Below, one piece after another: positions 25-59,318 of a stretch of DNA of 64,000 bases. Under the pieces are notes generated by a model, which worked only from the letters and a program-made list of their open reading frames with translations, made no database searches and was not told the DNA's origin. A program made the position numbers and the translations under genes. This stretch comes from an uncultured Candidatus Saccharimonadales bacterium (GTDB lineage: Bacteria; Patescibacteriota; Saccharimonadia; UBA4664), in assembly GCA_964467655.1 (NCBI GenBank), contig CAYXSN010000008.1, positions 78-64,077 of the forward strand, read 5' to 3'. Each line of letters begins with the position of its first letter. The stretch's first letter is position 1.

Positions 25-765
25 ATGTCTGGACACTCAAAATGGGCTTCCATTAAGCACCAAAAAGGAATCAAAGACGCCCGCCGCGGCGCCAGTTTTA
101 CGAAGTTTGCCAACCTCATATCGGTGGCCGCCCGGGGTGGCGCCGATCCGGGCATGAACTTCAAGCTCAGATTGGCCATGGACGCTGCCAAAAAGGCCGG
201 TGTCCCCAACGCCAACATCGACAGGGCTATCAGGCGCGGGTCTGGCCAGGACGACGGCGGCACCTTCGAAGAAATCACCTATGAGGGCTATGGTCCCGCC
301 GGCGTGGCAGTCATCGTTGAAACCGCCACCGATAACCGCAACCGCACCGGTCCCGAAGTCCGCTCAGCCTTCACTAAGCACGGTGGCTCCTTGGGCACCA
401 CCGGCTCAGTGGCCTTCCAGTTCACTCAACGCGGTGTTATCGTCATTGCCGCCGACGACCTTGAAGCCGCCACCATGGCCGCCATCGAGGCTGGCGCCGA
501 AGATGTAGAAGAGGGTGAGGGCGAGTTAGTCGTTTATACGGCCGCCGTCGAGCTTGATGCTGTCCGCAAGGGGTTGGTCGCTGCGGGCTACACCGTTGCC
601 AAAGCCGAGCTGTCATTTGAACCCAACACCACAGTGCCGGTGACCGATGAAGCCACCGCCGGCAAACTCATGAGGCTCATGGATTCTCTCGATGAACTCG
701 ATGATGTTACGGCCACCTACGCCAATTTCGACATTGCACCCGACCTGCTCGAAAAACTTGGCTAA
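25..765 (+). CDS. yebC: YebC/PmpR family DNA-binding transcriptional regulator
   Basis: N-terminus MSGHSKWASIKHQKG and overall 246 aa match the YebC family; classic neighbour of the ruvCAB genes. Confidence 0.9.
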   Translation: MSGHSKWASIKHQKGIKDARRGASFTKFANLISVAARGGADPGMNFKLRLAMDAAKKAGVPNANIDRAIRRGSGQDDGGTFEEITYEGYGPAGVAVIVETATDNRNRTGPEVRSAFTKHGGSLGTTGSVAFQFTQRGVIVIAADDLEAATMAAIEAGAEDVEEGEGELVVYTAAVELDAVRKGLVAAGYTVAKAELSFEPNTTVPVTDEATAGKLMRLMDSLDELDDVTATYANFDIAPDLLEKLG

Positions 766-2021
766 ACCTGGGGCTTGCGCTTGTTTTTGGTGAGCTGCTC
801 GTAAAACGCCGGTTGTGGCCGCCAGGCCGGCACAAATTTAGCCGGTCCCTTGGCTAAGGCGTGGCGTTTCACAATTCGCTCGTAGGTCGCGGCGTAACGC
901 TGGGCCATAAACTGGTATGAGAACTTCTCTTCGACGCTGCGTCGGCAGGCCGCCGGGTCGATCTCTTCAACGCGCTGCATGTAGACGGCAAATTCTTCAG
1001 GTGTATCTGCCAAAAAGCCGTTCACACCGTGCTCGATGATTTCGGGCATCGAACCTCGCCGCATAGCTACTACCGGCGTCCCGCAAACCAAAGCGTCGAT
1101 GACGGCTACGCCAAACGGCTCGTCCCAGGCAATGGGCATCAGGAAAGCTTTGGCCCGGCCGATCAGCCGGTCTTTGACCTCACCAGTAACACTTCCAACG
1201 TACTCGATTTTGCCTGGCTGCAAATAGGGGACGACTGCATCCCTGAAGTACAAGATGTCCTTCTTGAGATCTTGGTGTTGCGCGCCGCCGAGTCGAGCTT
1301 CAAGCTGCTCCGGCGTGCTGATGTTTCCGATAATGCCGCCGATCTTAAACGGTACCCCTAGCTGGGCGCACAACTTGGCCGCCAAGCCAGTATTTTTTTC
1401 AGCCGCAATCCGGCCGACTGTCACAAAGTAATCATCTTTGCCATCGGCCATCTGGTGGCCGGCGACGTCAATGCCGTGATGGATGATAGCCACAATCTTT
1501 TTGCGCAACGGCACCGGTGCCTGCTCGGCTTGGGCCCGCGAAATGGCATTAAAATACAGTCTGTCGCTATGGGACATGAGGGTATATGCCACATCGGTAT
1601 CAATATAGCCCTGGTCCCGGCGCTCGGTAGTTACAAAGGGACCATGTAGGGTATGGAGGACCGGCGGCAATTCGGGCCGGCTTACCAGGAGGGCGGGTCC
1701 CAAAATATTGTTATGGTCGTGAATAATGTCGTACCCGCCGTGGCGCTGGATTTGTTCCATGACGCTCAAAAGATGGGTGACTGGAATCGGAGTTGGGTCG
1801 TCGGTGCCGGCTGTCAGGTGGCCATATTGCTCCTCGGCATACGTCCAATAATGGCGTCTGGCCGGCGTCACGCTGCCTTCCACTCCAAAGAAATCAACCT
1901 TTACTCCCATTTCGTATAAACCCCGGCACAAATGGTCAACTACCGATTCAGTGCCGCCATAACCCTTGGCCGGCACCGTCAGCCACGGCGGTGCCACCAT
2001 GGCAATTGTCAGCTTCTTCAT
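762..2021 (-). CDS. GT4-family (group 1) glycosyltransferase
   Basis: C-terminal EPFGVAVIDALVCGTPVV...E motif typical of GT4; start moved to MKKLTIAMV inside ORF 762..2069; 4-nt overlap with yebC stop. Confidence 0.7.
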   Translation of the reverse strand: MKKLTIAMVAPPWLTVPAKGYGGTESVVDHLCRGLYEMGVKVDFFGVEGSVTPARRHYWTYAEEQYGHLTAGTDDPTPIPVTHLLSVMEQIQRHGGYDIIHDHNNILGPALLVSRPELPPVLHTLHGPFVTTERRDQGYIDTDVAYTLMSHSDRLYFNAISRAQAEQAPVPLRKKIVAIIHHGIDVAGHQMADGKDDYFVTVGRIAAEKNTGLAAKLCAQLGVPFKIGGIIGNISTPEQLEARLGGAQHQDLKKDILYFRDAVVPYLQPGKIEYVGSVTGEVKDRLIGRAKAFLMPIAWDEPFGVAVIDALVCGTPVVAMRRGSMPEIIEHGVNGFLADTPEEFAVYMQRVEEIDPAACRRSVEEKFSYQFMAQRYAATYERIVKRHALAKGPAKFVPAWRPQPAFYEQLTKNKRKPQV

Positions 2022-2076
2022 AGCTCCCTCCTCAAGATACTTGATCATTTGACCATATCTAGAGAACAAAAGCCTT

Positions 2077-2097
2077 GGTAAATTAGCTAAATTTACC
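2077..2097. promoter_or_regulatory. imperfect palindrome GGTAAATT-AGCT-AAATTTACC in the divergent promoter region between the GT4 gene and the 620-aa ORF
   Basis: direct reading of the sequence; candidate operator. Confidence 0.3.
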
Positions 2098-2173
2098 GTA
2101 GCGCTACCCCGCCACAGTTGGATACTATGTAATTTACGTTAAAAACTGTTAACAAATACTCAAGGGAGGGTGA

Positions 2174-4036
2174 ATGCCAAAATCAGGGAATATCTGGCTT
2201 GAAGGTGCGTACTATATCGACACCAACGATTATGGCGAACTACGGATTGTGGGGCCGGGCAATCACTTGTTGCTTGGAGCCACCGGTCTGGCGCACCGCC
2301 ACCTCAAAGTCCTGGGAGTAAAGGCGAAAGCCAAAGAAGTTGAGATTAGCCTCAGACTGAGACTCACTGACGGATTTATCGGAGATCCAGCCATGGGCCA
2401 TATCCGCCGAGTCCGTCAATTGACCCAGTTTGACGGCCGGAAAGAGCCATCATTTGCCGATTTAGCCCCCAGAAAGCTGGCCGACCTCAGTCCTCAGCAA
2501 ATCACCGCCGTACCCAGTGACACGGGGACTGTAGTGACGTTCCTGCGGACCTACGGGCGCTCATACTACGGAACCGTGTGGCAGTGGCCGGCCGGCGTTC
2601 ACCTGAAACGCCGACAAGCAGACCACGGCTTCCAAGTCACGAGCACCGAGTCGGTCATGACGGTGATCGTGACGACGACGACCAACGTTCATCCGTCTCG
2701 TTTCCGACGGTCGTTGTGGCGGTCAAAGCAAACCGCCGACGCCACGCCGTTGCTCGCCCAAACTGCCGCTGAAATCAGCCACTTAGTCAGTAACGGCAAA
2801 ACCAGCGGCTTCGATTATGGTACGGTCTTCCCGAGAGACTGGATCGAGACGGCCGACCTACTGGAACCCGAACTCACACCCGTTGCCTACAGCTTCTTCT
2901 ACGCCCAAGCCTTGCGGCACGTGGCCGACGACGGCGCCGGCTGGCACGAAGATATCATCGGAGAATTCAGATATGAGAGAGAGCAGGAACTCGCCAACTT
3001 GCGTAATAATCTTGGCGAATTAGTCGGCCCAGATAGCCCCCACCGACAACGGTTTGAAACAGTCATGAGAGATCTCGATGAATTGTTCGTCACGCGCCAG
3101 ATGATCGACATCGAACCCCACTACATCTTGGGCTTGCGCCATATTGACCCGGTCGACTTTGACACCGACAGCCTGCTACGGCTGCGCCGGGTCGCCCGCT
3201 ATCTGGTCGCCCAGGCCGACAACCATAACCTCATTACATTTAAACAACTTGCACAGCCGTTCCGGCGGCAAAGAGGCGATGAATACTATGATGCCGGTAA
3301 TTGGCGCGATTCCACGCAGGCCTTTAGGCAGGTTGATCCGGTTATAGCGCCATTTGATGTGAACGCCGTCTTGTATCCTCAAGCGCTGCGCCAACTCCGC
3401 CGCCATCACCAGGTACTCGGCCTCGATGCGGCTCTGCTCGACCGGCTGGTCAGCAAATGGGACCGTACCAAGGCTTGGTACCGGTTTACGAATCCAGACG
3501 GTTTGTCGGCCTACGCCCTGGCGCTCTACGGTACCAACGGCGCGACCGGCCGCCATCATGGCCAGCTCCTAAAAGTCAACCATCTCGATGAATCATACGA
3601 TTTGTTTTACGGCACTCCCTCTGAAGCCGACGTTGAAAGCTTTGCCCGGCGGGTACTGTCGCCACACTACTTTCGCACAAATTCTGGCCCCACCTTGGTG
3701 GGGCACTACGACGGTTATGATCACAGCCAGTATCATGGCGATGTCATTTGGGCCAAGCAAGCCGCCTTTACAGCTGAAGGTTTCACGAGGCAGCTAGCGT
3801 ATGGTCGCGCCAACAGCTGGGCAGACAGTACCCTCGAACTGATAGCTGCCGCCCGCACTGACGTTGCCGGCACCATGCTGGCGGCGTTTGCAGCCTTGGG
3901 CCAGTTTCCCGAAGTCCACTACGACGACCAGGGCCTGGCCCGCCTGTATACCGACCAACCTGCTCCCGAGGGCGTGATGAACCGGGTGCAGTTATGGAGC
4001 GCCGCCGCCGCCCGCCGCTTGGCCGCGAGCCAATAA
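2174..4036 (+). CDS. hypothetical protein, 620 aa (possibly a glycoside hydrolase given glycogen-gene context; no motif recognised)
   Basis: long ORF with RBS GGGAGGG 6 nt upstream of ATG; no confident family assignment. Confidence 0.5.
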   Translation: MPKSGNIWLEGAYYIDTNDYGELRIVGPGNHLLLGATGLAHRHLKVLGVKAKAKEVEISLRLRLTDGFIGDPAMGHIRRVRQLTQFDGRKEPSFADLAPRKLADLSPQQITAVPSDTGTVVTFLRTYGRSYYGTVWQWPAGVHLKRRQADHGFQVTSTESVMTVIVTTTTNVHPSRFRRSLWRSKQTADATPLLAQTAAEISHLVSNGKTSGFDYGTVFPRDWIETADLLEPELTPVAYSFFYAQALRHVADDGAGWHEDIIGEFRYEREQELANLRNNLGELVGPDSPHRQRFETVMRDLDELFVTRQMIDIEPHYILGLRHIDPVDFDTDSLLRLRRVARYLVAQADNHNLITFKQLAQPFRRQRGDEYYDAGNWRDSTQAFRQVDPVIAPFDVNAVLYPQALRQLRRHHQVLGLDAALLDRLVSKWDRTKAWYRFTNPDGLSAYALALYGTNGATGRHHGQLLKVNHLDESYDLFYGTPSEADVESFARRVLSPHYFRTNSGPTLVGHYDGYDHSQYHGDVIWAKQAAFTAEGFTRQLAYGRANSWADSTLELIAAARTDVAGTMLAAFAALGQFPEVHYDDQGLARLYTDQPAPEGVMNRVQLWSAAAARRLAASQ

Positions 4037-4346
4037 TTACTATTGCCAACCAATCAGTGCTACTGCTACATTGGGAAGGCACCGTTCATTTTGATAAACC
4101 ATAGCTTCACGCTGATAGGGCGAAACCTGGGCAGTTCAGGGCAGTACCGCTACCGTAAAGTCGGACCAAACTATCAAGCGTTCACGCGTTTCGTGCCTTC
4201 GGAAATAAGGCCAGCCGCATTGCGTTTGAAAAAACGTCTCAGGCATACTTTCCGAACAGGGAAGTTTTTGTTTTTAAGGGGGTATTACTATCAAACGCTT
4301 TGGACTTATTACTGGGCTCATCCTTATCACTGCCATTGTCGGCCTG

Positions 4347-4859
4347 GTGGTGGTGCCCCGGCCCGCCGGACTGGTAGCCCGTCCGCAAACCGTCCCTGTG
4401 GTCGGTTCTAAAACCGTAACGCCGGTTGTCGCCGGAGACGCGACGGTCGCGCCGACTCCCTTGGTCTCGGTACCGCCACAGGCTAGCGCTACGCCACCGA
4501 TGTCCGTCGCCGGTTCAGGCGGCGCCGCCCGGTCGCCCGCCGCTACCATCACAGCTGCCCCCACGCCCCAGCCGCTCGTTAACCTCCGGCTTAACAGTCC
4601 GGCCGGCCAATTTACCTACAGCATCAAAGCCACCACCGTCACCGACGCCTGCAATATTTTGACTGCCGCTCACGACCAAGGTCTGATCAAAACGGTTACC
4701 ATCGACGATTCTTATCGGGCGGTCCTAAAAAGCGCATATGTGCGCGAGATTAACGGCTATTACAACAATTGGACCTTCAAGGTTAACGGCGTTTCGCCCA
4801 AAGGTTGTTCCTTAGCATCAGTAAAAACAGGAGACACGGTCCTATGGGAATATCAATAA
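4347..4859 (+). CDS. DUF4430 (transcobalamin beta-domain-like) protein; true start probably upstream around 4284-4290
   Basis: C-terminal ...NGYYNNWTFKVNGVSPKGCSLASVKTGDTVLWEY is the DUF4430 signature; in-frame upstream codons encode a hydrophobic anchor FGLITGLILITAIVGLVVV but no ATG/GTG/TTG start, so non-canonical start or coordinate uncertainty. Confidence 0.55.
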   Translation: MVVPRPAGLVARPQTVPVVGSKTVTPVVAGDATVAPTPLVSVPPQASATPPMSVAGSGGAARSPAATITAAPTPQPLVNLRLNSPAGQFTYSIKATTVTDACNILTAAHDQGLIKTVTIDDSYRAVLKSAYVREINGYYNNWTFKVNGVSPKGCSLASVKTGDTVLWEYQ

Positions 4860-6103
4860 ATCAATTTCGGCCACTTACTCGTGGTCTGACGGTGGCCATA
4901 CTCCTGGCCTTGCCGGCCAGATCACTAGCAGCGGTGCCCGCAGCCAATCAAACTGCCGTCACCAATGGCCTGGCCTACCTCACGAGCCAGCAACAGGCCG
5001 ACGGTCAGATCTCGGGCTTTAGCGGCATCAACCCATGGGCGCTCATGGCCTATACCGCCTCAGGCCAGGCCAATACCAACCTGCGCGCCTATCTGCTAGC
5101 GCATCCGCCGACAGCCGGCGCCACGGCCACAGATTGGGAAAAGGGCATCTTAGCCCTGGTAGCCGATGGTCAAAACCCGTACAACGCCGGTGGTACTAAT
5201 TATGTCACTGGGCTCAAAAGCCTGCACACCGCCGGCCAGTTAGGCAGTGCCTCGGCCGTCAATGATGATGCCTTTGGCGTGCTGGCCCTGTACGCCGCCA
5301 AGGTGCCGGCCCCCGACCCGGCCTTTGCTGATGCCCTCGACTTTTTGCTCGACCATCAGCTAGCCAGCGGTGGATTTAGCTACAGCGCTACGGCTGCATC
5401 ACCAGACGTGGATGATACGGCAGCCGCCCTGATGGCCATTCAGGCTGCCCAAACCGCCGGCAGTACCGACTCCAGGCTAGCCGCAGCCAAAATCTCGGCC
5501 CGCGCTTACATTCTCGGTACCCAAAACGCCGATGGTGGCTTCCCCTACGACCCGCTGACGCCACCAGAATGGGGCGGTAATGCCTCAAACCTGTCGACCA
5601 CAGCCTGGGTGATCAGCGCGCTCAACTCAATTGGTGAAGGCGGCTCAAGTGCCGGCACCAATGCTCAAAACTACCTCAAAGCTGGCCAAACCGCCAACGG
5701 CTCGTTCCCATACCAATCCGGTGCCGGTGATACCTTTGACACCTCATATGTGGTGTTGGCCTTGAGCGGCGCCGGCTGGCCGGTGGCCGTCTATGATGGC
5801 CAAGTGCCCACAACTGAGCCGGCCGCCGTTACTGCGACACCTACGCCCGTACCATCAGCCTCGCCTGCGCCCTCACCGTCTGCCACTCCTCAGGCCTCAA
5901 CCACTCCCAGTCCCAGTGCCTCGCCGACCCCAACGCCACAAACCGGTTCGGTGCTGGGCGCCAGTAGCGGCGGTGCCGGCCTGGGCAACCTTCCCGGTGT
6001 TGGTATGCTTGGTAGCGCCACCGGGCTCGTCATTGCCTCCTTACTGGCTATCGGCACCTACCTTGGTATCAGCCTCTGGCGCCGCCGTCAGGCCCGTATC
6101 TAA
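4844..6103 (+). CDS. secreted alpha/alpha-toroid (prenyltransferase/squalene-cyclase-like repeat) protein with Pro/Ser/Thr-rich linker and C-terminal membrane anchor plus basic tail
   Basis: signal peptide MGISINQFRPLTRGLTVAILLALPARSLAAV; repeated GG(F/S)xY / QxxDG(G/S) motifs; PT-rich linker; C-terminal hydrophobic segment followed by WRRRQARI. Confidence 0.5.
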   Translation: MGISINQFRPLTRGLTVAILLALPARSLAAVPAANQTAVTNGLAYLTSQQQADGQISGFSGINPWALMAYTASGQANTNLRAYLLAHPPTAGATATDWEKGILALVADGQNPYNAGGTNYVTGLKSLHTAGQLGSASAVNDDAFGVLALYAAKVPAPDPAFADALDFLLDHQLASGGFSYSATAASPDVDDTAAALMAIQAAQTAGSTDSRLAAAKISARAYILGTQNADGGFPYDPLTPPEWGGNASNLSTTAWVISALNSIGEGGSSAGTNAQNYLKAGQTANGSFPYQSGAGDTFDTSYVVLALSGAGWPVAVYDGQVPTTEPAAVTATPTPVPSASPAPSPSATPQASTTPSPSASPTPTPQTGSVLGASSGGAGLGNLPGVGMLGSATGLVIASLLAIGTYLGISLWRRRQARI

Positions 6104-6112
6104 ACAAAAACG

Positions 6113-6153
6113 CCCCCGGATACTCACAGTTGAAACACTGTGAGTATCCGGGG
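6113..6153 (-). terminator. rho-independent terminator (17-bp perfect stem CCCCGGATACTCACAGT, loop, then T-run on the minus strand)
   Basis: perfect inverted repeat at 6113-6153 followed on the minus strand by TTTTT (plus-strand AAAAA 6106-6110); lies downstream of the minus-strand genes 6163..6960. Confidence 0.7.
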
Positions 6154-6162
6154 AAGGGTCAG

Positions 6163-6552
6163 CTAAAAACGGTTCTCTGACCCGAAAGTCAGTTTTGTGC
6201 CGCTGGGACCGATGAACTCAATCTTGATGGTACCCGCCCTTGAGACATCAGTTTCCGAGATCCCGGGATTACCTGTAATCCGGTACAACGAACCCTTGGG
6301 AATTACACTTGAGAATGTTGCATGGTATCCCACAATACCGATATCGGTTCTATTAGCCCTAATCACGGTACTGGCTCCTGCAAAACATTCAAGTGATACA
6401 CTTGCCTGTTCATGACCAATTGAAATGGTCGACATACAAAACCGACGGGCAACCAGAATTCGCATTAAACTGGCCATGGTTTCTGTCAGGCCATCAAGTG
6501 GCTGGAAATCTCCGCCACACCAGTCCTTCAAAAGTGGACATGCCGACCTCAT
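6163..6552 (-). CDS. hypothetical small protein, paralogue of the 6559..6960 ORF
   Basis: shares YR(V/I)TG, I(P/S)(D/E)(S/T)D and C-terminal beta-strand-like I-x-I-x-F segment with the neighbour; lies in a lower-GC (about 47%) islet. Confidence 0.45.
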   Translation of the reverse strand: MRSACPLLKDWCGGDFQPLDGLTETMASLMRILVARRFCMSTISIGHEQASVSLECFAGASTVIRANRTDIGIVGYHATFSSVIPKGSLYRITGNPGISETDVSRAGTIKIEFIGPSGTKLTFGSENRF

Positions 6553-6558
6553 TTCACC

Positions 6559-6960
6559 CTAGGCTATTCGTTTTTCTGACCGAATTGTCAAAGTGTTACC
6601 AGACTTAAAAGTAAAGATGACTACGACGTCGCCTTTTGATCGGCGTAAAAATGCACGTTCATCGCTGTCAGGAATGCTGCTCATACCTGTGACTCGGTAA
6701 GTGCCGTCAGTATTGAGAATCCATATCGAGTGAGCATTAGTAGTCGATATTACAATGGCGCCAGGAGACAAGCTCACCTTAAGACGCCTCCGGTAGAGTG
6801 AACTAACATTAAACCCGTTCCCGTGAGAAAAGTTGACATTAAGTCTCAGTTGAGATCTTTCCCGCCGCGTTAAATCTGCCAATAAATTGAAAAGAGCTTC
6901 CTCGACCCCCATGGCTTCATGGTCTCGACCGTCAAGACATAAGCCTTCATAGCGGCCCAT
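6559..6960 (-). CDS. hypothetical small protein, paralogue of the 6163..6552 ORF
   Basis: tandem paralogue; same orientation; lower GC than flanks. Confidence 0.45.
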   Translation of the reverse strand: MGRYEGLCLDGRDHEAMGVEEALFNLLADLTRRERSQLRLNVNFSHGNGFNVSSLYRRRLKVSLSPGAIVISTTNAHSIWILNTDGTYRVTGMSSIPDSDERAFLRRSKGDVVVIFTFKSGNTLTIRSEKRIA

Positions 6961-7026
6961 CAGGCCTCCTTATTCTCTGAAAGAACAATCAGGATCGGCT
7001 AGTTATGGCATTAATTGCCAAAATGA

Positions 7027-7905
7027 TCAATCTATCAGCTTACTCCGCCATTGTAAGATCAGGTTACCAATCTCAGCCTCGCTGCCTTTGAGGTTATGCA
7101 GCGAGTCCTTAATCACAGCCACCTGTCCGTTGCGGCGCGCCAAAGCACCCTCAAACCAGTCGACTAGCTCGCCAACCGGACGGTCGATGTACTCGTCGGC
7201 ACCGGCGATAAGCACGAGCACTGGCACCCTCACGGCCTGCAGTGCCGAGGGCTGCCGGTCCTCAAAAGCATAAGGAAACGTTTCCTCTGGGCCATCGCCG
7301 CTGTACAAGCTGATCCAACGCTGAGCAGATACAACCTCAGGCCAATCGGCTTCATCAAGCAATGCCATCGGTTTGCCGTTTGTCACCAGTTGCCGAGCCG
7401 CTGCCGCCGCCCGCTGGAAAATCTCGGCCTCAACTTCCTGTTTCATAGCGGCGTAATCACTCATCGGACAAAGTAAAACTGCACCCGTTACCGCCGCATC
7501 GGCCTCAGGCTGGCCCAAGGCGTACACGGCTTTCTGGCAACCGGTTGAATGGCCGACCAGCACAATGTCGGTGGCGCCCCGCTCCTTGAGGAAGCCCACG
7601 GCTCCGGCGATGTCATCGGTGCAGTCAGTAAACACTTCCCGCGCCGCGCCGCCCGCCGCCCAGGTATAGCCCTTCTTGGAATCGGCTACTTGTTGAATGC
7701 CCGTCAGAGTATCGTGGCCACGGTTATTGAAGTACAGCACCTGAGTATCGCCGTCTGCCAGCGGAGCCAATATCTTATGTCCGCTAAACGCCGAACTCTC
7801 AAGACCATGAATAAATATATAGCCACGCTTGGCACCGGCCCGACCATATACCAGGCCGTCCAAAATATAGTTGTCACGTGGGGTAATGAGTTGAATGGCT
7901 TCCAT
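7027..7905 (-). CDS. alpha/beta-fold hydrolase
   Basis: nucleophile elbow VLVGHSTGC (GxSxG); start moved to [13 protein letters not shown] inside the longer ORF; divergent from ruvC. Confidence 0.65.
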
Positions 7906-7954: not shown

Positions 7955-8455
7955 ATGAAGATCATTGGCATTGACCCTGGCACTGCTACCACCGGCTTTG
8001 GTGTAATTGAGGCCGCCTCCGGCCGCATGAGGTTTATTGATGCCGGGGTTATTACCACCCCACCCACCGACGCCATGCCCGACCGCTTGACCACGATCTA
8101 TCGTGAGCTCACTGGGCTGGTTGCCGAACACCGCCCCCAGGCCGCCGCGGTCGAACAATTGTTCTTTGCTACTAACGTTACCACCGCCATATCAGTCGGC
8201 CAGGCTCGGGGAGTCATATTGCTGGTGCTGGCCCAGGCTGGTCTGATTGCCGCCGAATACACACCTATGCAGGTCAAGCAGGCGGTGTCGGGCTACGGCG
8301 GCGCCAAAAAGCCCCAGGTTCAGGAGATGGTCAAAAATCTATTAAAACTACCCGCAATTCCCCGACCAGACGATGCGGCCGACGCATTAGCGATTGCTAT
8401 TACCCATGCTCATACAGCTTCGTATAATATTCCGCCAGCATCCGCTCAGTCGTAA
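7955..8455 (+). CDS. ruvC: crossover junction endodeoxyribonuclease RuvC
   Basis: [19 protein letters not shown] ... [14 protein letters not shown] conserved RuvC motifs. Confidence 0.9.
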
Positions 8456-10052
8456 AGCCTTCTAGAACAAGTTTCATATTGGCCCTCATCCGCTCAATCC
8501 AATAGTGAGGAATCCCGTACGTCCGCCAATAGAATAGTGGCGCCACCTCTTCTGCTAAAATGTCATACAATGTCCGACCCGCCTCCTCGCCGCCAACGTC
8601 AGGTAAAAGCCAACCGATGTCCTGCAGCTTCACCTCATCCACCCAGCCGTCCGAAGTTGATAACTGCAAAGCACCATTGAGGCTGGCCTTCATCCCCGAA
8701 GTCCCACAGGCTTCGTACCCTCTGATCGGTGTATTCAGCCAGACGTCAGCACCACGTACCAGAAACTTGGCACTAAAGGGATTATAGCCTGGTAGGTAGG
8801 CCAAGCGGGCCGATAACTCCGGCAGCTTGCTGGCCGCAATTACTCGTTGCATGAGCTCCATGCCACCCATATCCGCCGGGTTGGCCTGGCCGGCTACAAT
8901 GATCTGCACTGGCTTATCGGCGGCATTCAGAATCTTGGAGAGTCGGGCAGTATCACTTACCAGGAGCTCAGGTCGCTTATAGGCAGCCATTCGGCGAGCC
9001 CAGACGACGGTTAACCAATCATTGTTGAGCTGCTTGCCCGTTTGCTGCCGCACATGCTCGATGAGCTGGCGCCGATTCTCGTTGTGGACGGCCCAAAATT
9101 TGGCGTCATCGTACTCGAGGGGGTTGCCGTCCCAGGCCTTGGTTGTCCAGCGCCATCTGAAAACGCCGTTGGTAATGGGAATAAGTACGCTTTCGGGATG
9201 TACCCTTTTCTCTTCGCCGACATGCAAGATAGACACCCCACTTTGGCGCCCGCACAAACTGACCAGTAGCTTGGTGCCCGAATAATCAGCTGGCTGCCGG
9301 CGGCCGGCCAAACCCTTGAGCTCATCCAGGTGTACGCCCGCCTCCTGTAAGGTCGGTCCTAGTAATAGCTCCACACTCTGCCAGTCCAAAAACAGTCCGG
9401 CGCCTGGCAGTATGGTGTGCTTGGTGCCGGCAAGCATTGGCTTGACGGCTGCCACGGCTGCGTCCAGGCCTGTGCCCGGGTGCTGCTGCAGGTATCCAAG
9501 AGCTACCGCTAGCCCAGCCAAAGCCGTATGGCCTTCATTGAGGTGCCAGGCTTTCGGCTCAAAACCCAGTGCTCGCACCATGGCCACGCCACCAAAGCCC
9601 AGGCAGATCTCCTGCGCCATGGCCAGCTGATGCTCACTGGCGTACAGATGGTCGCAAATCATTTGGTCTTGAGGGTCATTTTCTGGGAGCCGGCTATCGA
9701 GTAGTACCAGGCTGGTTTGACCCCATTGCTTCACCCAAGCCTGCAAGAGCACCGTCCTGTCGGCCACTTGCACTGGTACCGTCACACGTTGGCCATCGTG
9801 CACAGCCACCTCAAAACCATGAGCGCTCAGGCGTTCGTGAATCGGCCTCTGGTCAAGGTCATCGCCGCTAAAAGCTTGGTGGTACACCAGACCCATTGCC
9901 ATAAAAGGCCGGTTTTCGGCCGCTGCCTGTAGGACAATATCGGCCGCCAACACACCCAAACCACCCGCATAAATCGGCAGGTCATCGGCAATGGCGTATT
10001 CGGCCGAAAAATAAGCCACAGGAATTGATTGCTGAGTCGACATTCTGTTCAA
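8400..10052 (-). CDS. glgP: alpha-glucan (glycogen/maltodextrin) phosphorylase, GT35 short form
   Basis: PLP-binding signature [11 protein letters not shown] and N-terminal GGLGVLAAD; convergent 56-nt overlap with ruvC. Confidence 0.88.
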
Positions 10053-36325: not shown

Positions 36326-36402
36326 TGGTGCCCCCGGCAGGATTCGAACCTGCGACCATTGGCTTAGAAGTCCACTGCTCTATCCAGCTGAGCTACAGGG
36401 GC
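36326..36402 (-). tRNA. tRNA-Arg (anticodon TCT inferred from loop CTTCTAA); anticodon stem has two mismatches
   Basis: minus-strand GCCCCTGTAGCTCAGCTGGATAGAGCAGTGGACTTCTAAGCCAATGGTCGCAGGTTCGAATCCTGCCGGGGGCACCA with encoded CCA; the weak anticodon stem keeps the identity tentative. Confidence 0.65.
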
Positions 36403-36417
36403 GGGCAAATGATACCT

Positions 36418-36492
36418 TGGTGCGGGTAGCGGGAATCGAACCCACATCCTCTGCTTGGAAGGCAGATACACTAGCCGTTGTGCGATACCCGC
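36418..36492 (-). tRNA. tRNA-Gly (TCC)
   Basis: GCGGGTATCGCACAACGGCTAGTGTATCTGCCTTCCAAGCAGAGGATGTGGGTTCGATTCCCGCTACCCGCACCA; anticodon loop CTTCCAA. Confidence 0.85.
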
Positions 36493-36557
36493 AAGAATCA
36501 ATATTTGCAAACGTTATTATATCAGATGATGGTGCATGTTGCGTATAAATGAGGTGT

Positions 36558-36583
36558 CCCCCGGTGACCGAAGTCACCGGGGG
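36558..36583 (-). terminator. hairpin CCCCCGGTGAC-cgaa-GTCACCGGGGG downstream of the high-GC gene
   Basis: perfect 11-bp GC-rich stem 17 nt after the stop of 36600..36938. Confidence 0.5.
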
Positions 36584-36599
36584 ACGGGGTTGCGAGGGG

Positions 36600-36938
36600 T
36601 CAGGCGTTGGTGGCCGGCCGCCTGCGCCTCTTCGGAGCCAGCTCGGCGAGACGCCGCTCCAGCTCCGCCTTCTCCTCCTTGGTGAGGCGGGCCTTCAGGC
36701 GCGTCCGCTCTCGCGTGGCGCCAAGGCCGAAACCGAGGCGCTCGTCGAGCAGGTCCAGCTGATCGAGGGCCGTGCGCCCGTCGCGCTCCTCCTGCTTCGA
36801 GGCCACCGCCTCGCGGCGGTCCGCCGCCGTGCGGTGGTGGCTGCGGGCGCCCTTGTGGGCGTCGCAGTTGACCGTAAGGCCGCCGTGTCGACGGCAGGTC
36901 TGCGGCGTGCCGGACTCGGTCTGGGGCTTCTTGGCCAT
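36600..36938 (-). CDS. hypothetical 112-aa protein with extreme GC3 (about 95%) codon usage typical of Actinobacteria; C-x-x-H ... C-x-x-H motif
   Basis: ATG preceded by GGGAGG RBS; nearly every codon ends in G/C (GCC AAG AAG CCC CAG ACC GAG TCC...); embedded in about 400 bp of 70% GC between the tRNA-Gly gene and the HAD hydrolase gene. Confidence 0.55.
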   Translation of the reverse strand: MAKKPQTESGTPQTCRRHGGLTVNCDAHKGARSHHRTAADRREAVASKQEERDGRTALDQLDLLDERLGFGLGATRERTRLKARLTKEEKAELERRLAELAPKRRRRPATNA

Positions 36939-37024
36939 TGCTGGCCTCCCTTCACGTGCCCTGATTAGGGCATCTGGGTTTGGACAGGATCGTCAGGCCG
37001 TTGTGCGCCTGAACGCAGTAAATA

Positions 37025-37675
37025 CTAACACAATTTCTTAATTTTGTCAATATTATCAGCTATCTCATCCGCCACAGCCCGCACCGCCGGCCTGTCGGCA
37101 TGTGCCACGTATGCCACAAAGGTATCGGCTAGACCCGCCCGCCGTACCTCATAATCAGTCATGCCATCGCCCACCATCACCACGCCGCCATCCAGGCTCA
37201 GTGACCGCACCGCCAGCACTTTGCCGTCATCCTGCGCCAACGGCCGTCCCGTCTCATAACCTCGGGCTACACCGTCGGTATCCCATATCAATCTGTTAGC
37301 CAGCACATGATCAGCGCGCAAACCGAGCCGCTCTACCACCGGCACGATCCAATCATCGAAACCGCCGCTCACCACCCACACGGCATTAGATCGCTTGGCC
37401 AGCCAGTCTGCCTCGCGCACAAACGAATTATCTACCGCCTCGTGCAGCGAATCTATCAACGCCTCCACCTGATTTCGTCGCGGCGACACCAAGGCCATGC
37501 GTTGTCGTAAACTATCAGCAAAACCAATCCTGCCCTCCATGCCGGCTGCAGTAATGTTGGCAATCTGAGCCGCTTTGGCCTCTCCATCAGGGTCTCCGGC
37601 CAGTACCATTCGTGCCAGTTCGTCAAGGCTCTCCACCCGCACAATTGTACTGTCGAAATCGAGTATAAAATTCAT
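37025..37675 (-). CDS. HAD-IB family hydrolase (phosphoserine phosphatase SerB-like)
   Basis: motif I FILDFDSTI, VVSGG, motif III MVGDGMTD; start moved to MNFILDFD because the longer ORF N-terminus is just the tRNA-Pro gene read in frame. Confidence 0.7.
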   Translation of the reverse strand: MNFILDFDSTIVRVESLDELARMVLAGDPDGEAKAAQIANITAAGMEGRIGFADSLRQRMALVSPRRNQVEALIDSLHEAVDNSFVREADWLAKRSNAVWVVSGGFDDWIVPVVERLGLRADHVLANRLIWDTDGVARGYETGRPLAQDDGKVLAVRSLSLDGGVVMVGDGMTDYEVRRAGLADTFVAYVAHADRPAVRAVADEIADNIDKIKKLC

Positions 37676-37685
37676 AAATAATGAC

Positions 37686-37762
37686 TGGTCGGGGTGAAAG
37701 GACTCGAACCTTCGACCTCCTGCTCCCAAAGCAGGCGCGCTAGCCAACTGCGCCACACCCCG
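37686..37762 (-). tRNA. tRNA-Pro (TGG)
   Basis: CGGGGTGTGGCGCAGTTGGCTAGCGCGCCTGCTTTGGGAGCAGGAGGTCGAAGGTTCGAGTCCTTTCACCCCGACCA. Confidence 0.85.
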
Positions 37763-37860
37763 ATGTACGATCCGTATCATTATACGGCCATACTCCGATA
37801 AGGTCTAGATTTATGAACCAAAATAGGGTAGAGTACGATAGTATTTTTTCATACCCATGT

Positions 37861-37938
<78 letters not shown>

Positions 37939-53547: not shown

Positions 53548-54108
53548 TTAGGCTTTGACAGTCCGGCGTATCCGCAGACGCCCGACCAATCCCCGCACCA
53601 GACCAGGGCCATACACGGCTAAGGTAAACAGCGCCGGAACCGCCACCAAATTACCAATCAAGTTCATCCGATAAAACGGCAATGCCATTATGTAGCAGTC
53701 AACCAATCCGGCCCAGGTATGCTCGTACATAGTACCGGTTAGCCACACGCCAAAGTTTGTGTACACAAAGAAAAACAGCGCCGATAGTATGCCACCAGCG
53801 GTACCCGCCAGCACCAAACGGCCGCCCTGCCAACGCCGCAGATACAGGCCGCTCAAACCGATCAGTGCAAACGCCGACCAAGTGAAGGTCAAAATAGGGG
53901 AATTGCCCATGATAAGATCCCCGGCCACCATCACGCTCAGAGGCACCACCAATGCCGCCCGCCGCGGCAGCATGGCCGCTGCTACCAAGCTAGCAGCCGT
54001 TACGAGCTCAAACCCTGGAGCTATCATGTGCTGGTAATTAAACACCCGCCACCCTAAAGCCAGCACCACCAAAACAATGGCGGCATACCATTTTTTATCA
54101 ATCGACAT
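53548..54108 (-). CDS. small polytopic membrane protein (candidate ECF-type substrate-capture component, CbrT-like)
   Basis: 5-6 TM helices, about 186 aa; position in a cobO/DUF4430 cluster next to nrdJ; function inferred from context only. Confidence 0.4.
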   Translation of the reverse strand: MSIDKKWYAAIVLVVLALGWRVFNYQHMIAPGFELVTAASLVAAAMLPRRAALVVPLSVMVAGDLIMGNSPILTFTWSAFALIGLSGLYLRRWQGGRLVLAGTAGGILSALFFFVYTNFGVWLTGTMYEHTWAGLVDCYIMALPFYRMNLIGNLVAVPALFTLAVYGPGLVRGLVGRLRIRRTVKA

Positions 54109-54171
54109 GAGACCCCCTATTAAATAATTACGCAACGTGCTCTATCAGCATAGCACGCCCCGATCGTAAAA

Positions 54172-54555
54172 TTAATAACTCTTAAGTTGCCAGGTAATAC
54201 TCTCATCGCCGCGGCAAATGTAAGCCGAAGGATCCTGATCAACGAGCCGCCCGTCTACCCAAAACGACCACTGCTCGTGCCTGGCCAGCTCAGCTTGCCG
54301 GCCATTTATACCGGTGACGTATTTGGCACCACCGACCTGGCGGATATCAACCACAGCCTTCTGCTGCAGCACCTCCAGCGCCGTCATACCCTCGACGCCG
54401 GTCAGGGTAAACTCAGCCGGGCTCATATCCCTCAATGCAGTTGCGGCTTCGGCGACTGAAACCGGCTCACTGCTCACAAGAGGCAGTGCTGAACTGACGG
54501 TTAATACTATGCCCACCGCCGCCGTCGCCCACCACCAAACGTTGCGAGTCGTCAC
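54172..54555 (-). CDS. secreted DUF4430 (transcobalamin beta-domain-like) protein
   Basis: signal peptide; C-terminal ...GGAKYVTGINGRQAELARHEQWSFWVDGRLVDQDPSAYICRGDESITWQLKSY. Confidence 0.55.
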   Translation of the reverse strand: MTTRNVWWWATAAVGIVLTVSSALPLVSSEPVSVAEAATALRDMSPAEFTLTGVEGMTALEVLQQKAVVDIRQVGGAKYVTGINGRQAELARHEQWSFWVDGRLVDQDPSAYICRGDESITWQLKSY

Positions 54556-54649: not shown

Positions 54650-55204
54650 CTAGTAGTCGATCGTTTTGCGGGCCAAAATGCCGGCGTCATACGGGTGTTT
54701 AACTTTTCGCATCTCGGTCACCAGATCGGCCCGTTCAATCAGCGGCGTTAGATCAAGGCCTTTGTGGCCGGTCAAAACTAGATCGATCTCGGGCGGTCGG
54801 GAATCGGCTAGTTCAACTACTGCCGCCAACGGCAACAGCCCGCCAGTGACGCAGCCGATGATCTCGTCTAGCACAACCACATCATAGGCTCCCGAAGCGA
54901 GCTTTCTGGCTGCCAGCTCCAGGGCGGCCCGGGCTGCTTCCACGTGCTCGGTTTCCGGTAGCTTATCGCCGAGTATCTTGTAGAAGCCTTTGCCCGCCTG
55001 TATAAATTCGACATTTGGCAGGTGCTCGAAGCCGCCTTTTTCACCGGTAAACCATGTTTTTACAAACTGAATAACGAGCACCCGTTTGCCATAGCCGGCT
55101 GCCCGTAGCGCCAAGCCCATGGCGGCCGTTGTTTTACCCTTACCATCGCCGGTGTATAGGATGAGCAATCCGCGATCTGATTCGTGCAGCTCTGGTTCAG
55201 CCAT
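54650..55204 (-). CDS. cobO: cob(I)yrinic acid a,c-diamide / corrinoid adenosyltransferase (CobO/BtuR/CobA type)
   Basis: P-loop LILYTGDGKGKTTAAMG, VLDEI, 184 aa. Confidence 0.8.
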   Translation of the reverse strand: MAEPELHESDRGLLILYTGDGKGKTTAAMGLALRAAGYGKRVLVIQFVKTWFTGEKGGFEHLPNVEFIQAGKGFYKILGDKLPETEHVEAARAALELAARKLASGAYDVVVLDEIIGCVTGGLLPLAAVVELADSRPPEIDLVLTGHKGLDLTPLIERADLVTEMRKVKHPYDAGILARKTIDY

Positions 55205-55302
55205 GACGCCTGTCTCCTTGTGTTATTTACAGACTAGTGATGTAAATGGTATTCTAGGCCAACGCACCTTCAACGTCTACTCTTTCGACTAGTGGAGCCG
55301 TC

Positions 55303-55806
55303 ATGGGAATACACCCGCTGCGGGTGAAAGTTCGCACGCTCTGGCGTTATCGGAAGCAGCGTGCCAAAATCCCTGGTATTTTAGCCATTCGCTACCTGGC
55401 TATTGTCAGCTGGCTAGCAGTGGCGGGAATAGCCATCATCATCTACTACTGGATGGGTGGTCTTGCGGTGAGCATGGTGCTACCGTTCATAGTCTATGTG
55501 ATAATCGTGATCCACGATTATCGGCGTCGGCTTGAAAACCGCTATTTGCTTGACCAGTACCGCCAGGATTACTGGGTCGGCCGATCGTGGTTCTACACAT
55601 GCGTCATCAACCTTCTCTGGGCGATCTTCATCATCCTCACCATCATCGTGACCGGTGTCGCCATCAGGATTGTTCTAGGATATGGGCGCAGCGACACCCT
55701 CCTTACCGCCTACATCATGAGTACTATCTTGGTACTCCTATCCGGCAGCCAACGGTATCTTGCACTGATGCTGAAACCAAGCCGCCGATCGGACTCGTCG
55801 AGATGA
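55303..55806 (+). CDS. hypothetical membrane protein (4 TM)
   Basis: 167-aa ORF, hydrophobic. Confidence 0.35.
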   Translation: MGIHPLRVKVRTLWRYRKQRAKIPGILAIRYLAIVSWLAVAGIAIIIYYWMGGLAVSMVLPFIVYVIIVIHDYRRRLENRYLLDQYRQDYWVGRSWFYTCVINLLWAIFIILTIIVTGVAIRIVLGYGRSDTLLTAYIMSTILVLLSGSQRYLALMLKPSRRSDSSR

Positions 55807-55874
55807 CGAAAGCCGACTTGTACCTGCCACACCACCCCCAGGACGTTCGTCCTGGGGGTTCTTTTGTGGTCAAA

Positions 55875-58673: not shown

Positions 58674-58705
58674 GGCTTAGGCGTTCCCCTCTCGACGCCT
58701 AAGCC
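58674..58705. promoter_or_regulatory. inverted repeat GGCTTAGGCGT-N10-ACGCCTAAGCC at the nrdR/nrdJ junction (attenuator or terminator candidate)
   Basis: 11-bp perfect arms overlapping the nrdR stop. Confidence 0.35.
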
Positions 58706-59162
58706 GGCTTGCCGGGCTGATCAAGCAATTCGCCAACCTCTTCGGCAAATGCTTCTACCTGGGTGTAGCCCCGGCAGACGCTGGCAAAGCGAATATAGGC
58801 AATGTGGTCGACACTTTTGAGCTGCTCCATCACGAGCGCTCCTATCAACTCAGCCGGTACTTCCCGTCGCTTGCCACTACGTAGCTCAGCCTCTACGGCC
58901 TCGATCATCGTAAGCACCTGCACTTCGCTTACGGGCCGCTTGGTGACAGCTAGCTGAACGCCGCGTTTAAGTTTCTCCGGATCAAAACTCTCGCGCCGGC
59001 CATCATGCTTGATCACCATGAGATCGGGTAATTCCACACGCTCATAGGTCGTGAAGCGCTGACGGCAGCCCAAACATTCTCGCCGCCGGCGAGTGCTCGT
59101 GATATCGCTTTCGCGCTTGTCGAGCACCTTCGTGTCGCTGTGATCGCAAAAAGGACAAATCA
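58699..59162 (-). CDS. nrdR: transcriptional repressor NrdR (zinc ribbon + ATP cone)
   Basis: (M)ICPFCDHSDTKVLDKRE...RRRRECLGCRQRFTTYE; TTG start with GGGAGA RBS. Confidence 0.85.
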
Positions 59163-59211
59163 AGCCTTGGTGTAGTCTCCCGTGGGTTGTTGATGGTTGC
59201 GATAGCACAAC

Positions 59212-59260
59212 CACTTGTGCTACATTAGCATTATGAACGCTACATATTGTAGTCGTCAAT
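59212..59260. promoter_or_regulatory. two palindromes (AGCACAA-ccac-TTGTGCT at 59212-59229 and CTACATATTGTAG at 59248-59260), candidate tandem NrdR boxes in the nrdR / trxA divergent region
   Basis: centres about 34 bp apart; flanks match the CACAA...TTGTG arms of NrdR boxes. Confidence 0.4.
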
Positions 59261-59318
59261 ACTAAATACGGCGTGCTATGATGGTTCATGCCGCGTCAAA
59301 AAAAAGAGGGGACCACAC

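Follow-up and report, generated by a model that had tools for sequence, protein, structure and literature searches.

Described transcobalamin-like systems

Human transcobalamin, intrinsic factor and haptocorrin are single, soluble, receptor-targeted polypeptides in which an alpha6/alpha6 toroid and a beta domain sandwich one molecule of cobalamin (vitamin B12), and the isolated transcobalamin beta domain has been crystallised with cyanocobalamin (5NP4, by its entry title). A transcobalamin-like clade of SLBB beta-grasp domains was defined by Burroughs, Balaji, Iyer and Aravind (2007; Biol Direct 2:4, PMC1796856). Its bacterial members are secreted or wall-anchored, are frequently joined in one chain with an alpha/alpha toroid, which may precede or follow the domain, and in some cases carry Gram-positive anchor motifs; cooperative B12 binding was predicted for them, and animals were proposed to have acquired transcobalamin from Gram-positive bacteria. 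Here we describe a locus in which a DUF4430 gene (the transcobalamin beta-domain-like family) and a toroid gene lie next to each other behind a putative cobalamin riboswitch. It is located in a 64-kb stretch of DNA (contig CAYXSN010000008.1 of assembly GCA_964467655.1, positions 78 to 64,077, forward strand) of an uncultured Candidatus Saccharimonadales bacterium; the whole stretch is referred to as the window, and all coordinates refer to it.

Like the SLBB proteins of 2007, the two products combine a secreted or surface-anchored beta-grasp domain with an alpha/alpha toroid. The earlier proteins are fusions found mainly in Firmicutes and described without riboswitch evidence, whereas here the domains are separate polypeptides, unlike those of the human carriers too, in a candidate-phyla-radiation-type organism, with a Cbl-II-type aptamer and a link to the transporter component CbrT. 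A split pair has been described in Lactobacillus sakei (Verplaetse et al., bioRxiv 10.1101/864751), where the beta-like Lsa1839 and alpha-like Lsa1840 "transcobalamin subunits" are encoded in the energy-coupling factor (ECF) operon lsa1836–1840, to which haem uptake was attributed. In both systems, compared by description, an extracellular beta-like protein is encoded next to an extracellular alpha-like one, a prenyltransferase-type toroid, and the pair goes with an ECF S-component. The L. sakei operon, however, includes the S-component and ECF A/A'/T, its description mentions no riboswitch, and haem is argued to be the ligand, whereas the present pair stands alone behind the cobalamin riboswitch in a Patescibacteria-like genome.

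Since such proteins were predicted in 2007 and a split pair was described in Lactobacillus in 2019, a bacterial, even split, transcobalamin-like binder is not new, and nothing categorically new is claimed here; B12 binding is inferred. The searchable literature yielded no account of a riboswitch linkage, of the spread in Patescibacteria, Dehalococcoidia and Bathyarchaeia, of systematic coupling to CbrT, or of the sub-threshold aptamer variant.

We consider it probable that the locus is a two-gene operon for the capture of cobalamin or another corrinoid at the cell surface, repressed by cobalamin through a terminating riboswitch. An earlier note on this DNA had proposed a surface B12-capture pair under riboswitch control, and comparative and structural evidence, namely the folds of both proteins, their linkage and above-threshold riboswitches in front of orthologous genes, supports that proposal.

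Probable cobalamin aptamer in the leader

The leader is an intergenic region of 253 nt upstream of two overlapping genes on the same strand. It was searched with Rfam permissively over 3900–4450 (551 nt), and the whole window was searched at gathering scores. The best match in the leader was RF01689 (AdoCbl-II), covering the full length of the model at 4102–4181 with 23.4 bits (E 0.0055 in the 551-nt search). All helices of the four-way junction are formed in the full-length alignment to the model (Table 1), and the element ends 110 nt 5' of the DUF4430 start, on the same strand. It shares with the class II (AdoCbl-II/env8-type, RF01689) riboswitches the compact four-way junction devoid of a large P6 extension, the J3/4 sequence GGxGAA, the core GCxGUxCCGCxACxGUAAAGUCxGA and an OFF-switch platform. 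Unlike them, it carries insertions or deletions in L5, L6 and J6/3, scores 13 bits below the family threshold, and would act through a terminator and antiterminator.

A lineage-specific covariance model, R1, was built from seven above-threshold aptamers of distant relatives, with the clade of the window excluded. In the 64-kb window it gave a single match, on the plus strand at 4098–4180 (24.2 bits, E 5e-4). Over 84 sources R1 gave 46 matches, 41 of which immediately precede a DUF4430 or toroid gene in the same orientation.

Conservation among close relatives points in the same direction. DUF4430 homologues about 60–74% identical to that of the window are encoded in syntenic loci, with the shared order YebC, glycosyltransferase, 620-aa unknown protein, leader, DUF4430, toroid, hydrolase, RuvC and phosphorylase. 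The sub-threshold RF01689 match recurs in the syntenic leaders of four of them (L001, L003, L004 and L005), and the aptamer core is near-invariant even though the proteins of these relatives share only about 60% identity. Among them both strands of the closing stem differ (GCUGAUAG/CUAUCAAGC, GCUCAUAG/CUAUCGAGC and GCUUUUAG/CUAAAAGU), the double changes being GAUAG/CUAUC versus UUUAG/CUAAA, and P4, P5 and P6 are each retained by compensatory substitutions between the window and the Saccharibacteria aptamers. In the R1-based alignment A7, comprising 44 distinct sequences, 89.9% of cells pair versus 65.4% in shuffles, double-sided changes occur at 13 of 17 pairs, and the family-level covariation score is 0.508 versus 0.129 in shuffles; because this alignment was fitted to the model, the pair counts are inflated and the numbers generous. 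Of 13 related loci scanned at the Rfam gathering level, seven (L069, L017, L016, L019, L022, L014 and L023) show an AdoCbl-II or AdoCbl aptamer just ahead of the DUF4430 gene, and in an eighth (L008) an above-threshold aptamer is located elsewhere in the locus.

Several results weigh against this assignment. The RF01689 match falls 13 bits short of the gathering score (23.4 versus 36.5), and its E-value rescaled to the whole window would be about 1, which alone would not be significant there. At gathering level the window contains no cobalamin family, the only matches being four tRNAs, and no RF00174- or RF01482-type match was listed over 3900–4450 even at E <= 10, in an output that hides overlapping clan members and shows RF01689 alone. 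The E-values of R1 come from a shortened calibration. The L5–L13 kissing loop was not convincingly identified: two to three pairs are possible (L5 ACC with L13 CGG), with no clear covariation. Whole-leader fold energy is uninformative, the leader being no more stable than shuffles (z -0.05). On these grounds the element could be a decayed aptamer or a chance resemblance to one, the operon being constitutive or otherwise controlled. Such an origin is improbable in view of the single R1 match in the whole window, at the expected place and on the expected strand, the near-invariant core with compensatory stem changes amid proteins of only about 60% identity, the co-conservation of terminator and antiterminator described below, and the above-threshold aptamers at the same position in homologous operons.

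Because R1 finds this site alone, the leader is conserved with compensatory changes, and 41 related loci have an aptamer 5' of the same genes, the element is taken as genuine: judged from its sequence, it would be a lineage-divergent, class-II-type cobalamin riboswitch below the Rfam threshold, acting via transcription termination and predicted to bind cobalamin. The earlier note had named the absence of an above-threshold match as the outcome that would count against a riboswitch; no such match exists at the locus, and the assignment rests on the lineage model and on conservation.

Further strong cobalamin aptamers that are not directly 5' of a DUF4430 or toroid gene were recorded at 8383–8467 in L008, at 2353–2432 in L015 and, as a tandem pair on the minus strand, at 8496–8594 and 8654–8738 in L013.

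Putative promoter and expression platform

A putative extended -10 promoter precedes the aptamer, with TTGCCA at 4043–4048 and TGcTACATT ending at 4072. The earlier note had read CAGTGC, 12 nt and GGGAAGGC in this region as resembling a B12 box. Both strings are present (CAGTGC at 4055–4060, GGGAAGGC at 4073–4080), but the former lies inside the promoter and the latter directly after it, in the discriminator or start region. Three related leaders share the -10 hexamer unchanged but have GGTAAAGC or GAGAAAGC in place of GGGAAGGC. The pair was rejected as a riboswitch element because transcription probably starts at or downstream of it and GGGAAGGC is unconserved. The second motif of the note, GGGCGAAACCTGGGC (4118–4132), does lie inside the aptamer; it spans the end of the closing stem, J3/4 and the 5' strand of P4, and so is a J3/4–P4 segment rather than a B12 box.

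The aptamer is followed by a P13-like hairpin, invariant in the clade, and by an intrinsic terminator (Table 1). The 5' strand and loop of the hairpin (4198–4205) can pair with 4249–4256, in the 5' half of the terminator, to form an antiterminator, and the two conformers of the platform have predicted energies of -21.4 and -23.0 kcal/mol; being near-isoenergetic, they meet the need of a switchable platform. The terminator occupies the same place in L001, L004 and L005, and in Saccharibacteria leaders a P13-homologous CCUUCGAGCAAAGG hairpin follows the aptamer and is followed in turn by a terminator with a complementary segment.

Switching is predicted to proceed as follows. Transcription would start near 4080, and the nascent leader would fold into the compact class-II-type aptamer (4111–4179). 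With ligand bound, the P13 hairpin (4195–4211) would be kept, presumably via a loop–loop contact with L5, so that the terminator at 4247–4275 forms and transcription stops. When cobalamin is scarce, 4198–4205 would pair with 4249–4256, blocking the terminator and allowing the genes to be transcribed.

The inverted repeat at 6113–6154, between the toroid gene and the convergent open reading frame (ORF) 6163–6552, is bordered by an A-run at one end and by a T-run at the other. It is likely a bidirectional terminator closing the two-gene operon.

The DUF4430 protein

The first gene encodes a protein with an N-terminal membrane anchor, a Pro/Ala/Thr linker and a C-terminal beta-grasp domain of about 95 aa. 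The part encoded by 4347–4859 matches PF14478 with 27.5 bits (cut-off 23.8), which confirms the domain named in the earlier note; the start given there, GTG 4347, is probably not the true one. The frame is open from 4278, and a transmembrane helix, KRFGLITGLILITAIVGLVVV, is encoded only upstream of 4347. A Shine-Dalgarno sequence, AGGGGG (4277–4282), is located 7 nt before ATC 4290; at the aligned position L001 and L004 likewise have ATC, and L005 has TTG. Because of the upstream helix, the Shine-Dalgarno sequence and the aligned start codons, translation most likely begins at the non-canonical ATC 4290 rather than at the first canonical start, GTG 4347.

Gene callers truncate this protein at GTG 4347, with loss of the membrane anchor, while in relatives they extend DUF4430 proteins upstream through the riboswitch terminator (P0002 begins MRLGNFRREVFCFLGG...).

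A search of the PDB with the single DUF4430 sequence gave no matches, and that with the toroid sequence gave cyclases only; as these single-sequence searches were uninformative, profiles and predicted structures were needed. The AlphaFold2 (AF2) model of the DUF4430 domain, based on a 40-sequence alignment, has a predicted local distance difference test (pLDDT) score of 95.1. Its eight best PDB matches in Foldseek are all transcobalamin, the top ones being the isolated human beta domain in the apo form (5NO0) and with cyanocobalamin (5NP4), at a template modelling (TM) score of 0.74 and a root-mean-square deviation of 2.6 A over 98 columns. The beta-domain fold supposed in the earlier note was thereby found, as a beta-grasp fold that includes the insert specific to the clade. 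Matches to transcobalamin (E 1e-4), intrinsic factor and haptocorrin are also obtained with the sequence profile of the family.

The toroid protein

The second gene, which overlaps the DUF4430 gene by 16 nt, encodes a signal peptide, a toroid (about residues 30–325), a Pro/Thr/Ser stalk, a C-terminal hydrophobic anchor and an Arg-rich tail. The squalene-cyclase or prenyltransferase-repeat protein announced at 4844–6103 was recovered, with PF13243 (SQHop_cyclase_C) at 47.3 bits against a cut-off of 26.1 and weaker prenyltransferase-repeat matches. The AF2 model is a 12-helix alpha/alpha barrel (pLDDT 96.7). In Foldseek, class II terpene cyclases are the best matches (E 3e-9), and transcobalamin appears from rank 17 (E 1.5e-6, TMq 0.58–0.63).

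The protein ends with LPGVG (5990–6004), a hydrophobic segment and RRRQARI (window 5990–6100), and close homologues end with LP[AGSVT][VT]G (LPAVG, LPSVG, LPATG or LPVTG), a hydrophobic segment and an Arg-rich tail. This C-terminus is probably a sortase-type sorting signal in which Val commonly takes the place of Thr, which would anchor the protein to the wall.

The sequence of the toroid fits the transcobalamin comparison less well. Its sequence profile sits with squalene-hopene and drimenyl-diphosphate cyclases (class II terpene cyclases; E 1e-39), and a 60-sequence profile found no transcobalamin, intrinsic factor or haptocorrin chain at E <= 1. There is no PF01122 (Cobalamin_bind) match in the protein; unlike the human carriers, it has no detectable similarity of this type and keeps the DxDDTA motif. 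The latter, the catalytic motif of class II terpene cyclases, is retained as DVDDTAAA at 5405–5428, and [SP]Dx[DN]DTAAA is the most conserved stretch across the toroid family.

With its strongest sequence and fold matches to terpene cyclases and a catalytic motif conserved family-wide, the toroid could be a secreted class II terpene-cyclase-like enzyme, or an envelope protein unrelated to B12, next to DUF4430 by accident. This is very improbable. The protein comprises one toroid of about 295 residues and not the two toroids (beta-gamma) of the cyclases, and it misses the cyclase equivalog cut-offs by a wide interval (TIGR01507, 33.7 versus 431 bits; TIGR03463, 41.7 versus 851). It is, moreover, an exported protein with an extracellular anchor, lies beside DUF4430 or in one chain with it in nearly all sequences examined (see below), and is encoded behind cobalamin riboswitches.

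Linkage of the two subunits and their spread

A scan with the toroid profile, restricted to one genome per species, returned 80 loci, mostly in Patescibacteria (Saccharibacteria, Microgenomates and Parcubacteria) and also in Dehalococcoidia, Bathyarchaeia and some Actinobacteria. Linkage was counted with a hidden Markov model (HMM) built from locus sequences on 88 sequences, consisting of 87 fetched loci and the window; in 82 of them a DUF4430 domain lies beside the toroid or in one chain with it. The fusions occur in both orders, DUF4430–toroid in P0043 and toroid–DUF4430 in P0053 and P0066. The proposal of the earlier note that two adjacent surface proteins provide the transcobalamin folds separately agrees with the TM score of 0.74 for DUF4430, the high-confidence toroid model, these fusions and the linkage in 82/88 sequences.

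The same comparison connects the pair to a transporter. In 46 related loci a DUF6580/CbrT gene comes directly after the toroid gene and has the same orientation, and in P0073 and L082 the toroid is fused to the ECF-type membrane protein (CbrT) itself; both arrangements argue for physical coupling to transport. Because CbrT follows the toroid in the 46 loci, the usual operon would be riboswitch–DUF4430–toroid–cbrT, and the present genome appears to have it split into two loci, the first of which alone has a riboswitch.

In Bathyarchaeia (L025, L027, L030, L062 and L068), two or three tandem DUF4430 domains are found beside a toroid–DUF4430 fusion, together with an extra solo DUF4430 protein and a weak DUF6580 match. 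R1 detected no riboswitch in these five loci.

A second B12 locus in the window

A group of minus-strand genes at the other end of the window comprises nrdR, nrdJ, cobO, a second DUF4430 gene and a cbrT-like gene (Table 1). The DUF4430 gene lies between the CobO/BtuR and DUF6580 genes, immediately upstream of the cbrT-like gene. The DUF6580 profile matches chain A of 6FNP in the PDB (ECF-CbrT of Lactobacillus delbrueckii) with E 1.5e-22, the next match being another ECF S-component. By these matches, the product of 53548–54135 is probably a B12-specific ECF S-component, to which the captured corrinoid would pass. The earlier statement that the organism has a B12-dependent ribonucleotide reductase was correct, the enzyme being NrdJ.

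ECF-CbrT transports cobalamin, and an nrdJ-cbrS-cbrT-pduO cluster of L. delbrueckii has been cited (Santos et al., 2018; PMC5997447). In L. rhamnosus, a DUF4430 gene "of unknown function" is located beside the class II reductase gene rtpR (PMC9963975). The second locus of the window (nrdJ, cobO, DUF4430, cbrT-like) mirrors the L. delbrueckii cluster, differing in that the adenosyltransferase is of the CobO type, not the PduO type; the Lactobacillus cluster has no reported toroid partner. The name cbrS is reportedly due to Rodionov in 2009, and by inference cbrS is the gene for the DUF4430 protein.

Table 1. Features of the DUF4430–toroid locus and of the nrdJ–cbrT-like locus (window coordinates).
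Feature	Position	Strand	Support or remark
Putative sigma-70-type promoter, extended -10: TTGCCA, 18 nt, TGcTACATT	4043..4072	+	Consensus scan; predicted function
Candidate cobalamin riboswitch aptamer, compact class-II-like four-way junction	4098..4181	+	RF01689, model R1, compensatory changes, family covariation
Aptamer closing stem	4111-4118 / 4171-4179		A4176 bulged
Aptamer P4	4126-4129 / 4137-4140		
Aptamer P5	4143-4145 / 4149-4151		Loop ACC
Aptamer P6	4153-4155 / 4162-4164		
P13-like hairpin GCCUU-CGGAAAU-AAGGC	4195..4211	+	Invariant in clade
Intrinsic terminator, 7-bp stem 4247-4265, loop GAACA, then TTTTGTTTTT	4247..4275	+	Terminator scan
DUF4430 protein, transcobalamin beta-domain-like subunit ("CbrS-like")	4290(4347)..4859	+	PF14478, AF2, Foldseek, family profile
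Secreted single alpha6/alpha6 toroid protein	4844..6103	+	PF13243, AF2, Foldseek; ATG start
18-bp perfect hairpin after toroid stop codon	6113..6154	.	Terminator scan, minus strand; plus-strand use presumed
CbrT-family (DUF6580) membrane protein	53548..54135	-	PF20221, 112 bits
Second secreted DUF4430 protein	54172..54555	-	PF14478, 28 bits; found by locus-derived HMM
CobO/BtuR ATP:corrinoid adenosyltransferase	54650-55204	-	PF02572, 184.6 bits
NrdJ, class II B12-dependent ribonucleotide reductase	55875-58586	-	TIGR02504, 631 bits
nrdR	58699-59289	-	

Two properties of this arrangement speak against the capture operon proposed above: the cbrT-like gene lies 47 kb away and outside the operon, and no ECF ATPase gene was found, none of the ORFs of the window containing an ABC ATPase motif. 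If the genome has an energising module, it lies outside the window. A riboswitch was also sought at the nrdJ-cobO-DUF4430-cbrT locus, and none was found.

The proteins may bind B12 mainly as an extracellular reservoir or for sequestration, in competition or storage, rather than as obligatory feeders of an importer. This would suit the separate operons of the pair and CbrT here, with the second DUF4430 gene accompanying CbrT instead, and surface B12 reservoirs have been described in Bacteroides (BtuJ1). Given the cbrT genes directly after the pair in 46 related loci and the two toroid–CbrT fusions, we consider a reservoir role improbable and favour capture for import. Bacteroides BtuG, BtuH (DUF4465) and BtuJ are similar to the pair, by analogy only, in that they are exposed at the cell surface, are regulated by B12 and capture it for a membrane transporter; they differ in their unrelated folds (beta-propeller, DUF4465) and as outer-membrane lipoproteins serving the TonB-dependent BtuB. 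BtuH was also considered as a relative of DUF4430 and rejected, being a DUF4465 protein.

In the 670-nt gap between nrdJ and cobO (55205–55874) there is only an unsupported plus-strand ORF (55303–55806), predicted to be membrane-like and lacking a Pfam match. An NsiR1-like Rfam match at 55819–55866 (25.8 bits versus 39) is probably due to chance.

Nature of the ligand and proposed route of uptake

No binding data for a bacterial DUF4430 or toroid protein were found in the literature searched, and the sole experimentally studied homologous split pair, Lsa1839/1840 of L. sakei (bioRxiv 10.1101/864751), is linked to haem uptake. The pair may accordingly capture haem or another tetrapyrrole instead of cobalamin, as proposed for L. 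sakei: deletion of lsa1836–1840 lowered haem uptake there (bioRxiv 10.1101/864751), and transcobalamin-type clamps recognise the tetrapyrrole macrocycle generally. Against haem stand the position of this operon and 41 related ones behind a cobalamin-class aptamer, the membership of the linked membrane protein in the CbrT family, which has been shown to transport cobalamin and cobinamide (PMC5997447), and the genomic partners nrdJ and corrinoid adenosyltransferase, with no haem-related gene seen nearby. A haem ligand is on balance unlikely, marginally more so than either a chance aptamer or a mere reservoir, and a corrinoid is preferred. The riboswitch linkage in 41 related loci constitutes independent regulatory evidence for a corrinoid as the natural ligand of the family, and makes the question of haem versus B12 directly testable.

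The host is a small-genome organism that is probably unable to make B12. At its surface the DUF4430 protein would be held in the membrane by its N-terminal helix and the toroid would sit on a stalk with a probable link to the wall. As in transcobalamin, and in line with the bacterial fusion proteins, the two would associate and clamp one corrinoid, which could then be handed over to CbrT (53.5 kb) and an ECF module, adenosylated by CobO and used by NrdJ.

A wider proposal is plausible rather than probable. The set riboswitch–DUF4430–toroid–CbrT may be the standard B12 apparatus of Patescibacteria, with fused variants in Dehalococcoidia, Bathyarchaeia and some Actinobacteria. The two-subunit, wall-tethered "proto-transcobalamin" may be an extracytoplasmic substrate-binding device for an ECF transporter, and its alpha subunit a recruited class II terpene-cyclase toroid that still carries DxDDTA. 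If true, the recruited cyclase toroid would show where the alpha domain of animal transcobalamin came from.

To our knowledge, ECF transporters are a class defined by the absence of extracytoplasmic binding proteins, and the riboswitch evidence bears on whether they can use external ones. Candidate-phyla-radiation bacteria have tiny genomes and obtain cofactors from neighbours; the locus shows a probable route of B12 supply for the only visible B12 enzyme, the ribonucleotide reductase. As this branch of class II riboswitches lies below the Rfam threshold, B12 regulons in these phyla are under-called by standard annotation.

Other features of the window

The plus-strand gene immediately 5' of the leader (2174–4036) encodes the 620-aa protein of the syntenic block, which has no Pfam or NCBIfam match. 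Relatives L001 and L002 retain it, L005 lacks it, and its gene is split over four ORFs in L004. The latter locus derives from a complete 1.32-Mb metagenome-assembled genome (CP064960.1), in which the glycosyltransferase, the 620-aa protein and a DUF1749 hydrolase at 477–7194 are split into two to four ORFs. Intact in relatives, these genes look like the result of uncorrected long-read indel errors and not like pseudogenes.

Downstream of the toroid gene, the minus strand at 6163–6960 carries two tandem ORFs of 129 and 133 aa, both without a Pfam match and apparently alike in their C-terminal halves. They also occur in L088–L090, while L001, L004 and L005 have a short ORF or nothing at this place, and they may represent a strain-specific insertion. 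Of the four tRNA genes clustered at 36329–37935, one is on the plus strand and the others are on the minus strand.

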